Shown: positions 57,199-64,000, counted from the stretch's first letter. The stretch is 64,000 nt of DNA from Candidatus Eiseniibacteriota bacterium (GCA_963783375.1 CAWANH010000029.1:868981-932980), one strand, 5' to 3'. Numbers and translations are program-made. Notes: generated by a model not told the origin, from the sequence alone.

Positions 57199-59805
57199 CT
57201 AGTCGAGCACGATCTCCGAGGCCGGCTCCCGCAGATTGTAGCGGGAACTCATGACCGCGCCGTAGGCCCCGGCGTTCTCGATCAGGAGAACGTCGCCGGG
57301 TTCCGGATCGGGGAGCGATCGGTCGCGGCCGAGGACGTCCCCCGATTCGCAGATCGGACCCACGATCTGCCAGTAGCGCCGGCACGGCTCGTCCAGCCGG
57401 CTCAGGTTGTGAATGGTGTGCCAGGCGCCGTAGAGGGCGGGGCGAAGGAGGGAGTTCATCCCGGTGGTGAGCCCCGCGTAGTGGACGCCTTCCTTGGTCC
57501 GGACCTGGGTGACCGGGGCGATCAGCACCCCCCCTTCGCTGACCAGGAACCGGCCCGGCTCCAGGCGAAGATCGAGCCCGGGAACCCGCGCGCGAAGCTC
57601 GGCCAGACGCGCTTCGAGCAGGGCGAGGTCGAGGGGAGCCTGCCCTGGGCGCTCGGGGACCCCCAACCCGCCGCCCAGATCGAGCCAGCGCGCCTCGGGA
57701 AATAGCTCGCGGATCCCGGCCAGGGCTTCCCCGGTTCTGAGCCAGACGTCGGGATCGAAGATCCCGCTCCCGACGTGGGCGTGAAGGCCGGTGACCCTCG
57801 CCCCCGCCCGCGACGCGGCCTCGACCAGCGCGTCCAGATCCCCGAGGGGCTGCCCGAACTTGGCCCGCGCGCCCGCGGTCCGCACCGTGGGATGGTGGCC
57901 GAAGCCGCGACCCGGATCGAGCCGGACCGCCACATCGCGGCCACGGAAGAGCTCGGGGTTGGCTTCGAATGCACCGGGACCGTCCACCGTGATCTCGGCG
58001 CCGACGGCCGCCGCCGCCGTGTACTCCTCCGGGGGGCAGAAATTCGGAGTGAAGAGCACCGGACACCCGGATCCCGCGACGGCCCGCGCCCGCTCCACCT
58101 CGGCCGCGGACACGCACTCCAGCCCGTAGCCCGCCCCGGCGAGAACGGCGAGAACGTCGGGGTGGGAGTTGGCCTTCATCGCATAGTAGAACCGGTTGAT
58201 CGAGGGGAGGTCGCGCCGGAGCGCTTCGGCTCGGGCCCGGATCGCGCCGAGGTCGTAGACGTAGTGCGCGCGGCCGTCCGCCGCAATCTTCAGGAGTTCC
58301 TCCCGCCGGCCCCGCCACCACGCCGGGGCGACCTGCTCGCCCGGGCGGCCGCCCCGGAGCATCTCCCAGCTGGGACCGAGACGCGGATCCTCGTCGTGGG
58401 CGGAAAAGAGGCGCGCGTGGAGCCGGGCGACCAGGGGCTGGGCGTCCGCCTCGTCCACCACGAAAGAGACGTTCAGATCCTCGGCGGAGACGCTCACCAG
58501 GTGCACCGGGTGCTCCTGGAATGCCTCGAAGGCGGGGCCGAGCTCGTGGAGGACGGCGCGAATCCGCCGGCCGACGATCGACACCACCGCCGCGGGATGG
58601 ACGATCCGGACCGTCCCCAGCTCCTCGAGGCGCCGCACCAGCTCCCGGAACGCCCGTCCCTCCATCCCCCCCGGAACCGTGTCCAGGGTGACGCTCACCG
58701 CGAACTCCGAGGTGGTCACGAGGTCGACCGAGATCCCCAGATCCCGGAACGGCTCGAAGACCCGCGCCAGATAGCCGGGGGTTCCCCACATGGCCAGGGC
58801 GGAGAGATTCACCAGGGTCACCGAGGTGCGGCAGGTCACCGCGGTCACCGCAGGATGGGCGCCGTCGTCGGCCTCGATCCGGGTGCCTTCGATCTCCGGA
58901 GACTGGACCCGGGCCACCCGCACCGGGATCCGGTGGCGCGCCGCCGGAACCAGGCAGCGGGGATGAAGGACCTTCGCCCCCAGGCTGGCCAGTTCCTGGG
59001 CTTCCCGGTAGCCGATCCGGCGGATCAACCGCGCGGCGGGAACGCGGCTCGGGTCGGCGGTGAACATGCCGTGGACATCGGTCCAGATCTCGAGGAACTC
59101 GGCCCCCAGACGCGCGGCGAAGAGGGCGGCCGAGGTGTCGCTTCCCCCCCGACCCAGTAGGCACGTCTCCCCCTGATCGGTGCGCGCGAGAAACCCCTGG
59201 GTGATGACCACCCGCGCACCGCCGGCCACGCGCTCCATCGGGCCGGGGTCGCGCTCGGCGGGCACGTCGGCATCCAGGTAGCGCGCCTCGTCGGATTCCA
59301 TGGACCGGGGCGCGCTCACCATGATCTCGGTGGCGTCGAGCCAGGCCGCGTTCACCCCCCGGGCGGCCAGAAGCGCCGCCCCCAACCGGCTCGACGCCCG
59401 CTCCCCCATGGCCATCACGCGGGCGGTGAGACGCGGGGGCGTCTCCCCGGTCAAACGAATCCCGTCCAGGAGCCGGGCAAGCTCATCCCACAGAGCCGCC
59501 AGTTCGGGAACGTCGGATTCGAGGCCGCCTGCCGACCCCAACGCCCGGTGAAGCTCGCGAAGCTCATCAGGCGCGGTGACAGTCTTTCCCTGCCGGGCCT
59601 CGGCCACCGCGCGCTCCAGACGGTCGGTGACGGTGGCCAGAGCCGACACCACCGCGCAGACCCGGTGTTCGGGGGTGAGTGCCCGAACCCGTTCGGCGAT
59701 CCGGTCCCATCCGGTCGCCGTAGCCACCGAGGTGCCGCCGTACTTGAGCACGACCCAGGTGGAACCCTTGGACAGGTTGTCGGACATGGCGCTGTGATCC
59801 GTCAT
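57199..59805 (-). CDS. bifunctional aspartate kinase / diaminopimelate decarboxylase (LysC-LysA fusion)
   Basis: Residues 1-~450 are aspartokinase (VVLKYGGTSVATATGWDRIAERV... ACT domains). Residues ~455-868 are a PLP-dependent Orn/DAP decarboxylase (RAHYVYDLGAIRARAEALRRDLPSINRFYYAMKANSHPDVL...GGGLGVPE...ESGDVLG). The reading frame is continuous across 868 aa. Confidence 0.88.
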   Translation of the reverse strand: MTDHSAMSDNLSKGSTWVVLKYGGTSVATATGWDRIAERVRALTPEHRVCAVVSALATVTDRLERAVAEARQGKTVTAPDELRELHRALGSAGGLESDVPELAALWDELARLLDGIRLTGETPPRLTARVMAMGERASSRLGAALLAARGVNAAWLDATEIMVSAPRSMESDEARYLDADVPAERDPGPMERVAGGARVVITQGFLARTDQGETCLLGRGGSDTSAALFAARLGAEFLEIWTDVHGMFTADPSRVPAARLIRRIGYREAQELASLGAKVLHPRCLVPAARHRIPVRVARVQSPEIEGTRIEADDGAHPAVTAVTCRTSVTLVNLSALAMWGTPGYLARVFEPFRDLGISVDLVTTSEFAVSVTLDTVPGGMEGRAFRELVRRLEELGTVRIVHPAAVVSIVGRRIRAVLHELGPAFEAFQEHPVHLVSVSAEDLNVSFVVDEADAQPLVARLHARLFSAHDEDPRLGPSWEMLRGGRPGEQVAPAWWRGRREELLKIAADGRAHYVYDLGAIRARAEALRRDLPSINRFYYAMKANSHPDVLAVLAGAGYGLECVSAAEVERARAVAGSGCPVLFTPNFCPPEEYTAAAAVGAEITVDGPGAFEANPELFRGRDVAVRLDPGRGFGHHPTVRTAGARAKFGQPLGDLDALVEAASRAGARVTGLHAHVGSGIFDPDVWLRTGEALAGIRELFPEARWLDLGGGLGVPERPGQAPLDLALLEARLAELRARVPGLDLRLEPGRFLVSEGGVLIAPVTQVRTKEGVHYAGLTTGMNSLLRPALYGAWHTIHNLSRLDEPCRRYWQIVGPICESGDVLGRDRSLPDPEPGDVLLIENAGAYGAVMSSRYNLREPASEIVLD

Positions 59806-59987: not shown

Positions 59988-60422
59988 TCAGATGCCGGTG
60001 ATGACCGGCGCGTCCGCGCTCGCGTACATGTCGGGAACGGTCATCACCAGGGTGATCCCGGAAAGCTTGCCCTTCCCGGTTGCGGTGATCACCAGTGGGT
60101 TCGAGTCGGCGGGTTGGCCGCCGCCCGAGGAGATCTGATAGGTGAAGTTCTCGGAATCGGCCATGTCCATCAGGCCGAACTCCCCGGCCACCGGCGGCCA
60201 GGTGGGGGTTCCATTCAATGCCGCGTGTTCCTGGGAGAACGCCTTCGCCGCGGTGATCATCTCCCCCATGCGGGACTGGGCCTCGGTGACCCGGGTCCGC
60301 CGTACGTAGCTCCCGTAGATCGGAACCGCGATACCGGCCAGAACCCCCACCACGACGGTCACCACCATGAGCTCGATGATGGTGAAGCCAGCCTTGGAGC
60401 GGAGCGGATGGTGTCGTTGCAT
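59988..60422 (-). CDS. type IV pilin / prepilin-type N-terminal cleavage-methylation domain protein
   Basis: ...KAGFTIIELMVVTVVVGVLAGIAVPIY has the G|FTxxE prepilin peptidase site. The protein is 144 aa. An AAGGAGG RBS lies 7 nt upstream. Confidence 0.8.
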   Translation of the reverse strand: MQRHHPLRSKAGFTIIELMVVTVVVGVLAGIAVPIYGSYVRRTRVTEAQSRMGEMITAAKAFSQEHAALNGTPTWPPVAGEFGLMDMADSENFTYQISSGGGQPADSNPLVITATGKGKLSGITLVMTVPDMYASADAPVITGI

Positions 60423-60940: not shown

Positions 60941-61043
60941 CCGGCGCCCACGACCCGCGGGCGCCTCCGCGTCCCTGCCGTCCCCGCATCACAATATCCA
61001 ACAGGCTTGCGCTGTGTGCGAGAAACGCCGGGGAGAACCGCTG

Positions 61044-61074
61044 AAAAAAAAAGGCCGGGGGGTGATCCCCGGCC
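61044..61074 (-). terminator. canonical rho-independent terminator (8-bp GC stem GGCCGGGG/CCCCGGCC + U9)
   Basis: The minus-strand sequence is GGCCGGGGAUCACCCCCCGGCC followed by UUUUUUUUU. The plus strand has A9 at 61044..61052 preceding the hairpin at 61053..61074. Confidence 0.65.
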
Positions 61075-61250
61075 CCGCCTCAAGCTGGAGCCGGGCGTAG
61101 GCACCCGGCTGGAGGGCAACCAGCCTGAAGACTGATTCGTGCTCTAGGGCACGACCTCTTGACAAGGGTAACCGGCCAGTCCCACGAGGGATGAGCAAGG
61201 GCCGCGTCTGAGCGCAGCCAGCTTACACAGGGACACAGCCAAGCCACCGA
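61044..61250 (-). ncRNA. candidate small RNA (~200 nt) with its own extended -10 promoter and intrinsic terminator; identity unknown
   Basis: The unit is bounded by promoter TGGTATAAT (61264..61256) and the terminator at 61074..61044. It has lower GC than flanking DNA. The only ATG-initiated ORF is 34 codons with no RBS. No SRP RNA, RNase P, tmRNA or tRNA signatures were recognised. Confidence 0.35.
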
Positions 61251-61255
61251 GCATC

Positions 61256-61264
61256 ATTATACCA
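61256..61264 (-). promoter_or_regulatory. extended -10 promoter TGGTATAAT (perfect -10 hexamer with TGn)
   Basis: The minus strand reads ...TTTTGGGTGACGGCGGGGGGGGGCTGG-TATAAT-GATGCTCGG. The -35 is weak (GGGTGA). A G9 homopolymer lies in the spacer. Confidence 0.4.
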
Positions 61265-61296
61265 GCCCCCCCCCCGCCGTCACCCAAAATTTCCGC

Positions 61297-61908
61297 TTAC
61301 TGGAGACGCCGGACAAGCCCAACCACTTTTCCAACAATTTTCAGATCTTTCGGATTCCTCACCACGATGGGGTCCATGGTCTGGTTGGCCGGAAGAAGCC
61401 GAACCCTATCTGCTTTCTTTTCAAAGCGTTTGACGGTCGCCTCGTCCTCGATCATCGCGACCACGATGTCCCCGTTGACTGCCTGCTCCTGGGGCCGGAC
61501 CACGATGTAGTCTCCGGGGCAGATGTGTTCCTCGATCATGCTCTCACCCTGGACCTCCAGCAGGAAGTTCCCGTCTCCGCGGAGGAGGGAGGCGTCCAGG
61601 GTGAGCCGCTCGGCGATGTTCTCCACCGCGAGAAGGGGCGCCCCGGCGGCAATCCTCCCCACCAGGGGGACGCTCTGGCCGGAGGCGCTGGGCCGACTTC
61701 CGATGATCTCGATTCCCCTGGACCGGTCGCGGGTCCGGGCGATGAACCCCTTCCGCTCGAGGGCCAGGAGATGGTCCGAGGCGGCCCGGGTGCTCCTCAT
61801 CCCAAACTCGGAGCAGATCTCGCGGAGGGTGGGGGGGTACCCGTGCTCCTCCAGATGGCGGGCCAGGTAGTCGAAAATCTCCTGCTGTCGGGCGGTCAGG
61901 CGTTGCAT
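61297..61908 (-). CDS. lexA: LexA repressor (SOS response)
   Basis: Start at 61908 gives MQRLTARQQEIFDYLARHLEEHGYPPTLREICSEFGMRSTRAASDHLLALERKGFI... (wHTH). The C-terminal S24 peptidase has Ser (GESM) and Lys (VKRFEK). The protein is 203 aa with a GGAGG RBS. Confidence 0.93.
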   Translation of the reverse strand: MQRLTARQQEIFDYLARHLEEHGYPPTLREICSEFGMRSTRAASDHLLALERKGFIARTRDRSRGIEIIGSRPSASGQSVPLVGRIAAGAPLLAVENIAERLTLDASLLRGDGNFLLEVQGESMIEEHICPGDYIVVRPQEQAVNGDIVVAMIEDEATVKRFEKKADRVRLLPANQTMDPIVVRNPKDLKIVGKVVGLVRRLQ

Positions 61909-62414
61909 GGGGTGCCTCCCAGAAGGGTCCGGGTCACGAGGTCGGGGGAGAACAGGTCCCCTTGGCGATCCCGCCACCTCGCCCTCTCCTCGACCGAATC
62001 TAATGCACGACCGGCCGCGGGGCCAGCATTCTTGCTCGCTTTGGCCATTGATCCCCGCACCGCGTCCTTCACGTCCGTCTGGGCCGACACGCCCGGGGAG
62101 GCGGCCGCCGGTGGAGCGGGAGCGGCTTTCGGGACCCGCCCGACGGCCAGGGCCAGGAGAAAGCTCCTGGGCCAGAGATCTCCGGCCTCGGTGGCCACCG
62201 CGGGTCCCAGGGCGACCGCCCGGCGAAGAAGTCCGAGCCGTCGCTCCTGAACGAACTCGCTCCACTCGTCGGCGAACCGCCGCAGACGCTCCGCGCGAAT
62301 CCGGCGGGGCACGCTGCGACATGCCTTCTGGAGCTCCCCCACCAGGACCCGCCGTAGCGCGTACGCCTCCTGACGGGATCGGACTTCAGACCATTCCCTG
62401 TTCACCGCGATCAT
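61896..62414 (-). CDS. hypothetical protein encoded immediately upstream of lexA, overlapping its start by 13 nt
   Basis: Start at 62414 gives MIAVNREWSEVRSRQEAYALRRVLVGELQKACRSVPRRIRAERLRRFADEWSEFVQERRLGLLRRAVALGPAVATEAGDLWPRSFLLALAVGRV.... The protein-like N-terminal ~100 aa is followed by an Ala/Pro-rich tail. No recognisable domain was found. The overlapping plus-strand ORF 61907..62608 looks like compositional junk. Confidence 0.45.
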   Translation of the reverse strand: MIAVNREWSEVRSRQEAYALRRVLVGELQKACRSVPRRIRAERLRRFADEWSEFVQERRLGLLRRAVALGPAVATEAGDLWPRSFLLALAVGRVPKAAPAPPAAASPGVSAQTDVKDAVRGSMAKASKNAGPAAGRALDSVEERARWRDRQGDLFSPDLVTRTLLGGTPCNA

Positions 62415-62734
62415 GGTCGCCCCCTTTGACGGCGGGCCGCTCGCCCGCCCATCCGCGTTGGTTGACGGGTTGTCCGGGCCGCGCCCCGCCGCTGCGGCGC
62501 CGGCCCGGAACCCCGTCGTTTGCCTGCCGCGCCCCGTGGGCGCGGTCTCAAGAACAGCCCGGTCAAGGTCGGCTTCGCCCGCCTCACCCGACTTTCCCCG
62601 TCTTTTAGAGAGGACAGACACCTTGCCGGGCTCAATCCGTTTGCTGTGCATATGTATACTACTCGCATGAAGCCTCGGCAAGCAAAAAAGGGAGGGGACG
62701 GCAAAAAGTTTCGAACTCCCGGTCAAACAACCGT

Positions 62735-64000
62735 TTAAGGGGCGTCGAGGAAGGCTTCCAGACGCATGGAGAGCCGCTCCCATTCGGAAATCGCCCCCCC
62801 GATCTCCGCCTCCAGCTCCTTCAGCCGCCGGTGGAGCCGGCCCAGCTTCTCGGGATCGACCGCGGTCTCGGGTTCGGCCATGGCCAGGATGAGGTCCTCC
62901 TTCTCCGCCTCGAGTTCCTCGATCCGGGTCTCGGCGTCGGCCACCCGCCGGCGGAGCTTCTCCTCATCCCGCTTCCGCCGCCGCTGCTCCTCGTAGCTCC
63001 TCCGCCGCGCCTGCTTCCCGCCTGCCACGCCTTCGGCGCCGTCTCCACTCCGTTCGGCCGGGGGGGAGGGCTCCGGCGCCGGCCCCGGAGCGCCCCGCGA
63101 CTTCTCCGAGGCCTCGGCGCCGGTCACGCCGCGCCGCGAGTGAGCGTAGGCCGAGTACCCACCTTCCCAGAGCCGGCTCCCCACCGCGCGAAGCTCCAGC
63201 ACGTGGTCCACCACCCGATCCAGGAAGTAACGGTCGTGGCTCACCACCAGCACGGTGCCGGCATAGATTTCCAGCGCGGCTTCGAACACCTCCCGGGATT
63301 CGATGTCCAGGTGATTGGTGGGCTCATCGAGGACCAGGAAGTTGGCGCCGTGGCGCACCAGCTTGGCCAGGGCCACCCGGCTCTTCTCGCCGCCCGAAAG
63401 CTGGTTCAACGCCTTGAAGACATCGTCGCCCCGGAAGAGGAAGCCCCCCAGAAACGACCGGATCTCGTTCTCGGTGACCTGGGGGGTGACCGACCAGACC
63501 TCATCGAGAACGGATTGGGGGCCGCGGATCCTGGTCTGCTCCTGCTCGTAGTAGCCGATCTCCACCCCCGGCCCGATCCGGAGCGTCCCCTCGGTCTGGC
63601 CCTCCTCCCCCACCAGGATCCGCACCAGGGTGCTCTTCCCCACCCCGTTGGGACCGATGAGGCCGATCTTCTGGCCGCGGATGACCGAGAACGACACGTC
63701 GGAGAAGATGCGGGCATCGCCGTAGCGCTTGGAGAGCTTCTTGGCCTCGGCCACGATCTTGGCGCTCCGCGACGGCTCGGGGAGCTTCATGTGGATGCTC
63801 GAGGCCGGCCATTCCGGGGCATCGATGCGTTCCAGCTTCTCCAGCGCCTTCCGCCGGGACTGGGCCTGCTTGGTCTTCTGGCCGGCTAGGTTCCGGCGGA
63901 TGAAGTCCTCCTGGCGGAGGATCTCGACCCGCTGGAGCTCGTAGCGCTTGGCCTGCTCCTCGAGGCGCCGTTCGCGCTCGACCAGGAAGTCGTCGTAGTT
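62735..64000 (-). CDS. ABC-F family ATPase (EttA/Uup/YheS-like), C-terminal ~420 aa; the N-terminal ABC domain lies beyond the window end
   Basis: The second ABC domain is present (GLIGPNGVGKSTL, LSGGEKSRVALAKL, LVLDEPTNHLD) plus a C-terminal coiled coil. Reading upstream of track ORF 62735..63790 in the same frame continues without a stop to the window edge. That sequence is the inter-domain linker (...YDDFLVERERRLEEQAKRYELQRVEILRQEDFIRRNLAGQKTKQAQSRRKALEKLERIDAPE). Confidence 0.85.
   Translation of the reverse strand, partial: NYDDFLVERERRLEEQAKRYELQRVEILRQEDFIRRNLAGQKTKQAQSRRKALEKLERIDAPEWPASSIHMKLPEPSRSAKIVAEAKKLSKRYGDARIFSDVSFSVIRGQKIGLIGPNGVGKSTLVRILVGEEGQTEGTLRIGPGVEIGYYEQEQTRIRGPQSVLDEVWSVTPQVTENEIRSFLGGFLFRGDDVFKALNQLSGGEKSRVALAKLVRHGANFLVLDEPTNHLDIESREVFEAALEIYAGTVLVVSHDRYFLDRVVDHVLELRAVGSRLWEGGYSAYAHSRRGVTGAEASEKSRGAPGPAPEPSPPAERSGDGAEGVAGGKQARRRSYEEQRRRKRDEEKLRRRVADAETRIEELEAEKEDLILAMAEPETAVDPEKLGRLHRRLKELEAEIGGAISEWERLSMRLEAFLDAP

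Follow-up and report, generated by a model that had tools for sequence, protein, structure and literature searches.

In Escherichia coli, the small protein UmuD/UmuD' (with UmuC) is under LexA control, contacts the beta sliding clamp and modulates replication after damage; among the SOS-regulated clamp partners are DinB, Pol II and UmuC. Hda, YabA and Caulobacter SocB are small proteins that must occupy the clamp cleft to function, and T4 gp33 and gp55 are small helical regulators with a clamp-binding motif. DdrR, encoded beside umuDAb in Acinetobacter, is a lineage-restricted small protein of unclassified fold. Small, fast-evolving, lineage-specific genes beside lexA are often division inhibitors (YneA, ChiZ, and SulA in Pseudomonas), and bacterial phyla differ widely in how their SOS systems are composed. 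Phage Mu MuC is a small regulator with a clamp motif that needs the clamp, is toxic on overexpression and perturbs replication control (bioRxiv 10.1101/2025.01.04.631326). Here we describe ORF172, an open reading frame (ORF) of 172 codons directly upstream of lexA in a 64,000-nucleotide stretch of DNA (the window; GCA_963783375.1 CAWANH010000029.1:868981-932980) from Candidatus Eiseniibacteriota. This group is known here only from metagenome-assembled genomes, and our literature search found no published SOS study for it. ORF172 is a conserved gene under purifying selection, and we tentatively propose that its product docks on the clamp and is made together with LexA.

ORF172 is the first of two cistrons.

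61896-62414, minus strand: ORF172, from the ATG at 62414 to the TGA at 61898-61896, 172 amino acids plus stop
62420-62425, minus strand: Shine-Dalgarno sequence of ORF172, AGGGGG, 5 nucleotides ahead of the ATG; most relatives have GGAGGG

The translation begins with MIAVNREW and ends with GGTPCNA. An earlier account made from this DNA alone (the sequence-only reading) had described a 172-codon frame ending 13 nucleotides inside lexA, and this was borne out to the nucleotide. The G+C content at the three codon positions of ORF172 is 0.74, 0.58 and 0.78, with the minimum at the second position (GC2) over the full length, and that of the in-frame upstream extension (62415-62783) is 0.63, 0.64 and 0.67, with no periodicity. 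A word-indexed search returned relatives at 100, 88, 87, 65 and 48% identity, and homologues at 87, 73 and 48% identity start at ORF172's own start. The ratio of nonsynonymous to synonymous substitution rates (dN/dS) is well below 1 against each of three relatives, so that ORF172 passes the conservation check proposed in the sequence-only reading. Against the locus L005 (87% identity) it is 0.24 for ORF172, 0.10 for residues 1-95, 0.59 for residues 96-160 and 0.04 for lexA; the corresponding values are 0.38, 0.19, 0.66 and 0.08 against L002 (73% identity) and 0.39, 0.27, 0.65 and 0.23 against L001 (52% identity). Because codon-position composition, low dN/dS, a homologue family (see below) and a conserved start all point the same way, we conclude that ORF172 is a real gene under purifying selection.

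With 70% G+C in the window and long spurious plus-strand ORFs (61907-62608 and 61525-62250) overlapping the ORF172 region, the frame could be suspected of being a non-functional product of high G+C or the antisense of another ORF; moreover, its G+C at third codon positions (GC3, 0.78) is below that of neighbouring genes (0.82-0.90). We give this explanation practically no credence, and the conservation data already refute it. In the two plus-strand ORFs GC2 (0.77 and 0.61) compares with GC3 of 0.62 and 0.72, a pattern unlike that of coding sequence, and the objection that ORF172 merely mirrors the composition of an antisense frame therefore fails. Moreover, dN/dS of the N-terminal domain is 0.10-0.27, the family of about 39 clusters shares a conserved start, a length range and motifs, and AlphaFold predicts a confident fold.

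Both M-I-A at the start and, immediately 5' of it, the ribosome-binding site GGAGGG are kept across loci, and therefore two public gene calls that extend ORF172 upstream through a leader RNA (see below), P0001 (295 amino acids) and P0002 (252 amino acids), are over-extensions that our result corrects; the true start is the ATG at 62414. The additional peptides are translated RNA core, which reads 'GEAGEA...' in the window and 'GGSRVRRTK' in P0022 and P0032.

The second cistron and its junction with ORF172 comprise the following elements.

61297-61908, minus strand: lexA, 203 amino acids plus stop, ATG at 61908
61915-61920, minus strand: Shine-Dalgarno sequence of lexA, GGGAGG, inside ORF172
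61906-61908, minus strand: start ATG of lexA, inside the end of ORF172
61896-61920, minus strand: dual-coding junction, in which the last 8 codons of ORF172 (LGGTPCNA) hold the lexA Shine-Dalgarno sequence and ATG

The lexA product matches Pfam LexA_DNA_bind (PF01726, 8e-25) and Peptidase_S24 (PF00717, 2e-34), as well as the NCBIfam equivalog TIGR00498 at 238 bits (cut-off 111). Its translation shows an Ala-Gly pair in ...RIAAGAP..., which we take to be the cleavage site, and the stretches GESM and VKRF, presumably with the catalytic Ser and Lys. LexA of the window and LexA of L001 are 80% identical.

A lexA gene lies directly 3' of the family gene in the window and in 13 other readable loci: L001 (the same as L006), L002-L005, L007, L008, L010, L011/L012, L109, L134 and L135. 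Two loci, L009 and L136, are cut short, and the gene tables of two further loci without DNA agree in listing the family gene and then lexA. The 13-nucleotide overlap (61896-61908) is kept in L001, L002-L004 and L005, whereas distant relatives have a gap of 3-12 nucleotides, so its conservation holds in the closer relatives only. In every locus examined the lexA ribosome-binding site lies inside or just after the family gene. The C-terminal sequence LGG[TS]PCN, invariant only in the overlap-bearing clade, arises because the same nucleotides also form the ribosome-binding site and start of lexA, and is not a protein feature. Since ORF172 relatives are tightly packed against lexA in every locus, by overlap or by the short gap, co-transcription and the translational coupling that had been deduced from the overlap are the natural reading, and ORF172-lexA would be a conserved two-gene operon. 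The two relatives that bear organism names are Candidatus Eisenbacteria/Eiseniibacteriota genomes, and the family seems to be lineage-restricted.

Among 1.84 billion representative proteins, a profile search detected 39 ORF172-family clusters at E <= 1e-3, which are 97-213 amino acids long, bar one spurious long protein. Scans of ORF172 and 34 members against Pfam, NCBIfam and PHROGs gave no match or isolated chance matches only, and no Pfam or NCBIfam domain family was common to more than one of the 34 members. No match was found by the profile search of PDB sequences with ORF172 or by its viral structural comparison, and a metagenome scan with a degenerate peptide pattern gave no confirmed relative. 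The family library searches detected no similarity to DdrR, DinI or RecX, Pfam and NCBIfam no S24 domain, and no polymerase, ATPase, repair or RNA-binding fold was recognised in the protein. From an AlphaFold model, built with a 34-sequence alignment, and from conservation in the family, ORF172 divides as follows.

62130-62414, minus strand: N-terminal domain, residues 1-95, predicted basic helical bundle
61968-62129, minus strand: Ala/Pro-rich linker, residues 96-149, predicted disordered, with a predicted local distance difference test score (pLDDT) of 46-59
61950-61964, minus strand: QGDLF, residues 151-155, encoded by CAAGGGGACCTGTTC, candidate beta-clamp-binding motif

Residues 10-90 are modelled with pLDDT of 93-96, and the main helices of the N-terminal domain span residues 4-31, 37-56 and 60-77, followed by two short ones. 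The domain carries 19 K+R against 11 D+E; Y18, R21, R22, L28, Q29, R40, F47 and W51 are invariant, and L24, G34, R37, L89 and A90 nearly so. The linker is poorly conserved and varies in length among members, and the tail is predicted to be disordered (pLDDT of 46-63 over residues 100-172). Thus the lack of a recognisable domain and the Ala/Pro-rich tail, both pointed out in the sequence-only reading, stand, the former upheld by the Pfam scan. The maximum 19-residue Kyte-Doolittle mean is 0.96 in ORF172 and at most 1.54 across all 39 members, none of which has a membrane segment by this measure. With no membrane segment, no match to SulA or ImuA and a predicted all-helical fold, the analogies first drawn with sulA, yneA, sidA and imuA are not supported.

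The pattern Q-x-[D/E/N]-L-F is present in 34 of the 39 family members and is the sole conserved block in an otherwise unalignable disordered tail. In ORF172 it is formed around residues Q151, L154 and F155 of the tail peptide RWRDRQGDLFSPDLV. The residue counts are 33/34 for Q, 34/34 for D, E or N at position 3, 34/34 for L and 33/34 for F. The motif lies 5-17 residues from the C-terminus, and x-P-x-L-[V/A]-x-Q-P-[V/L] often comes next. The chance rate of the motif is 5e-4 per random 40-residue tail of the same composition. The bacterial clamp-binding motif is Q-phi-x-[L/M]-[F/L], often placed in disordered termini or tails; binding depends chiefly on the Q and on the hydrophobic pair that closes the motif, position 3 has a mild preference for Asp, and position 2 accepts various residues, with Leu best (PMC11139829). 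As a pattern match, the motif of the ORF172 family fits this consensus at four of five positions. We also noticed a weaker conserved patch, G-x(5)-[A/G]-[L/V]-D, at ORF172 residues ~131-139 (~61998-62024, minus strand), which lies about 12-25 residues before Q-x-D-L-F in many members (RALDS, SGLDS, CAVDF, SGVDW) and may be part of a bipartite binding region.

The pentapeptide of ORF172 resembles that of the known clamp partners Pol IV/DinB, Pol II, Pol III alpha, Hda and MutS/MutL in its Q (position 1), acidic residue (position 3), L (position 4) and F (position 5), and also in lying in a disordered tail near the C-terminus. In contrast to these partners, ORF172 joins its motif to a small helical bundle in which no fold of a polymerase, ATPase or repair protein was recognised. 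UmuD/UmuD' embodies the same concept as we propose for ORF172, that of a LexA-controlled protein contacting the clamp, but UmuD has a LexA-like S24 peptidase fold, whereas ORF172 lacks S24 and it is its neighbour LexA that is an S24 protein. MuC and gp33/gp55 are small and helical with a clamp motif, and ORF172 resembles them in size, in its helical domain and in its candidate motif; in contrast to these phage regulators, ORF172 is chromosomal, tied to lexA, and without a match in PHROGs or in the viral structural comparison. Hda (AAA+), YabA (zinc-binding domain) and SocB (part of a toxin-antitoxin pair and not lexA-linked) have no homology to ORF172. DdrR and ORF172 are both lineage-restricted and unclassified and both adjoin a LexA-type repressor gene; however, DdrR is divergently transcribed, is about 80 amino acids long, has no clamp-type motif and shows no sequence similarity to ORF172. 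Finally, SulA, SidA, DidA, YneA, SosA and ChiZ are, like ORF172, small, fast-evolving and often lexA-adjacent, but ORF172 differs from the SOS division inhibitors in having neither a SulA domain nor a membrane segment.

Our literature search found no description of the ORF172 family or of a lexA-linked clamp-motif protein. The family and its leader RNA are absent from the searched libraries and from any paper that we found; an SOS-linked accessory protein with a clamp-type motif is, as a general idea, of an already known kind. Among the annotated genes of the window, which include those for MetH, RNase E/G, PBP2 and a radical SAM enzyme, there is none for a polymerase or repair protein that could serve as a clamp partner for motif comparison.

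Upstream of ORF172 we identified a putative promoter and, overlapping it, an inverted repeat.

62656-62685, minus strand: candidate sigma-70-type promoter, TTGCTT (62685-62680), 18-nucleotide spacer and TAGTAT (62661-62656), preceded by a T-tract
62649-62669, minus strand: operator-like dyad of 21 base pairs, CATGCGAGTA-G-TATACATATG, with its central G at 62659, overlapping the -10 box

The candidate promoter keeps its position and sequence in 11 of 12 loci; in L001 the hexamers read TAGTAC and, at the -35-like element, TTGTTG. The layout common to the loci consists of a T-tract, a TTGC-type -35-like element, a spacer, the -10 box and a conserved CATATGCACAGCA block. A strict consensus promoter scan did not call the ORF172 promoter. 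The dyad has the pattern CAT-N2-G-N2-TA-G-TA-N2-C-N2-ATG, with the -10 hexamer at its centre. Of 10 possible pairs, 6 are symmetric in the window, 8-9 in L008, L010, L009, L134 and L135, and 2 in L001; control centres have a mean of 2.3 pairs, and 1.7% of them reach 6 or more. In L008 and L010 the dyad is nearly perfect (CATATGAGTA-G-TATTCATATG). A dyad over the -10 box is the expected look of an autoregulated lexA promoter, and this one may be the LexA operator of the phylum, which would then be unlike the published boxes with which it was compared.

Between this promoter and ORF172 lies a further conserved element.

62553-62648, minus strand: structured 5' leader RNA of ~95 nucleotides

Its closing stem is formed by GCCCGG/CCGGGC and CAAGG/CCTTG, and its core, GACGGGGRAAGUCGGGUGAGGCGGRC, is nearly invariant. 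The leader nucleotides are more conserved than the ORF172 coding sequence, and their indels are not multiples of three. In an alignment of 11 distinct sequences, 95% of the cells are paired and three closing-stem pairs covary; the covariation score of 0.147 compares with 0.105 in shuffles and was reached by 2 of 500, which is suggestive, not conclusive, at a depth of 11 sequences. A covariance model of the leader has one match in the window and, among 40 sources, matches only upstream of the family gene. The motif was located at 5709-5802 in L001, 5770-5868 in L007, 487-584 in L008, 721-817 in L009, 637-730 in L010, 463-559 in L011, 398-497 in L109, 1382-1479 in L134 and 171-263 in L135, and between it and the start codon there are, depending on the locus, about 80 to about 240 nucleotides. 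A metagenome scan with a 16-mer of the core gave ~120 matches, nearly all of them due to chance or coding sequence (for example KSGEA in acyl-CoA ligases), with L109 as the only genuine one. A search of 62415-62734 (minus strand) against Rfam at E values up to 10 gave no match to the leader. The leader is a candidate cis-regulatory RNA, which could be riboswitch-like or protein-binding; like the tail motif, it had gone unnoticed in the sequence-only reading. An additional pairing, NGUYC/GGRCN, was considered and rejected: it fits some sequences, not all, and competes with a predicted GUC/GAC hairpin.

On this basis we propose a model in which a promoter, whose -10 box lies inside a candidate operator for dimeric LexA, would drive ORF172-lexA, with transcription then running through the structured leader RNA. 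ORF172 would be a soluble protein with a basic helical N-terminal domain, a disordered linker and QGDLF near its C-terminus, and QGDLF would dock it in the hydrophobic cleft of the beta sliding clamp (DnaN). Produced together with LexA, ORF172 would become more abundant on relief of LexA repression and would work at the replisome, where it might carry its N-terminal domain to DNA loaded with a clamp or occupy the cleft in place of polymerases and other partners. ORF172 could in that case be the SOS effector that the sequence-only reading suspected. That ORF172 is a clamp-docking factor made together with LexA from an autoregulated promoter is the reading we favour, tentatively and at slightly less than an even chance.

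Some observations weigh against this proposal. Position 2 of the motif is mostly G (12) or A (12), where the clamp pattern has an aliphatic residue. The Pol III alpha motif QADMF is a natural clamp motif with Ala at this position (PMC11139829), and Gly or Ala predicts a modest clamp affinity for ORF172. By eye, the promoter fits none of the published LexA motifs with which it was compared (E. coli CTGT-N8-ACAG, Xanthomonas, Fibrobacter, Gram-positive), which come from other groups of organisms and may not be those of this phylum. In addition, no second copy of the promoter block or the dyad was found in a scan of the window. Because no published LexA box was matched and the window holds no second copy, LexA control of the ORF172-lexA operon is something we infer.

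A different role for the same arrangement would be that of an accessory regulator of the LexA/RecA switch, such as a co-repressor, an anti-repressor or a RecA modulator resembling DdrR, DinI or RecX, with the motif, the N-terminal domain or both contacting LexA, RecA or operator DNA and not the clamp. The lexA linkage everywhere examined and the apparent translational coupling would suit it, as matched production is what a direct partner would call for; the basic N-terminal domain with its invariant Arg clusters is compatible with nucleic-acid binding, and a family seemingly confined to one lineage recalls DdrR. We nevertheless consider this role rather unlikely: ORF172 resembles neither DdrR, DinI and RecX nor any other known family, and no LexA- or RecA-binding motif is known that reads Q-x-D-L-F. 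Clamp partners are defined by that very pattern (PMC11139829). The motif bears likewise on the possibility that ORF172 is an SOS-induced division inhibitor, cytosolic like SulA, whose motif contacts FtsZ or another division protein, in that it matches the clamp pattern and no known FtsZ-binding motif. A size of about 140-170 amino acids resembles that of SulA, and the tendency of genes of this kind beside lexA to be division inhibitors speaks for such a role; yet the family is without the membrane segment of SidA, DidA, YneA, SosA, ChiZ and DivS, has no SulA Pfam match and is all-helical, not of the SulA alpha/beta fold. We regard a division inhibitor as improbable, clearly more so than a LexA/RecA accessory.

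The leader RNA offers another explanation, in which ORF172 is an RNA-binding autoregulator whose Arg-rich N-terminal domain binds its own leader and sets translation of the operon, the tail motif being a degradation or partner signal. Leader and protein family do co-occur at every locus with enough upstream sequence, the domain is Arg-rich as such a role would need, and an RNA core that hardly varies hints at a specific ligand or a protein that recognises it. However, the co-occurrence could reflect shared ancestry in one phylum, no RNA-binding fold is recognisable, and the conserved Q-x-D-L-F is left unexplained, so that we attach only a small likelihood to autoregulation of this kind.

If the motif of ORF172 binds DnaN, the locus would encode a compact LexA-coupled replisome factor that is not a polymerase, and also a new small helical domain to characterise. 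A broader and more doubtful view is that of an SOS repressor operon with two extra layers, a riboswitch-like or protein-binding leader and a co-translated clamp-docking partner, linking replisome or clamp status and an RNA-read signal to the LexA circuit; were it true, an unclassified protein fold and an unclassified RNA would make up a new DNA-damage checkpoint module. The leader and a second RNA-like element after lexA suggest RNA-level control of the SOS master regulator, which has rarely been described.

This second element is a conserved stretch of ~245 nucleotides at ~61043-61289 (minus strand), between lexA and a tRNA-Glu gene. It shows 72-89% identity in related loci, even where the proteins have diverged. 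Within it are a promoter-like site of its own, GTGACG-16-TG-TATAAT at 61283-61256, and, at 61076-61051, an intrinsic terminator whose tail is U9; a 210-nucleotide fold has a free energy of -104.9 kcal/mol (z = -3.9). Rfam returned no family at threshold for it, sub-threshold matches being driven by the terminator hairpin. We regard the element as a candidate small RNA gene.

The gene on the other side of ORF172 is also shared with relatives.

62735-64000, running off the window, minus strand: 3' part of an ABC-F ATPase gene (Pfam ABC_tran, ABC_tran_Xtn and ABC_tran_CTD)

An upstream ABC-F gene with the same domains is present in L001, L002, L003 and L134, and weakly in L009 (ABC_tran_CTD only). 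The C-terminal coiled-coil domain (ABC_tran_CTD) gives the ATPase a Uup-like architecture, and its position may stem from common descent alone or from a functional connection with DNA repair. Further from ORF172, 57202-59805 (minus strand) encodes a protein of 868 amino acids in which an amino-acid kinase with an ACT domain (aspartokinase-like) is fused to an Orn/DAP/Arg decarboxylase domain; it looks like a LysC-LysA-type fusion, which would unite the steps that open and close the lysine pathway. Downstream of the tRNA-Glu gene, 59988-60422 (minus strand) encodes a type IV pilin-like protein with an N-terminal methylation motif, and a similar pilin-like gene follows lexA in L001.

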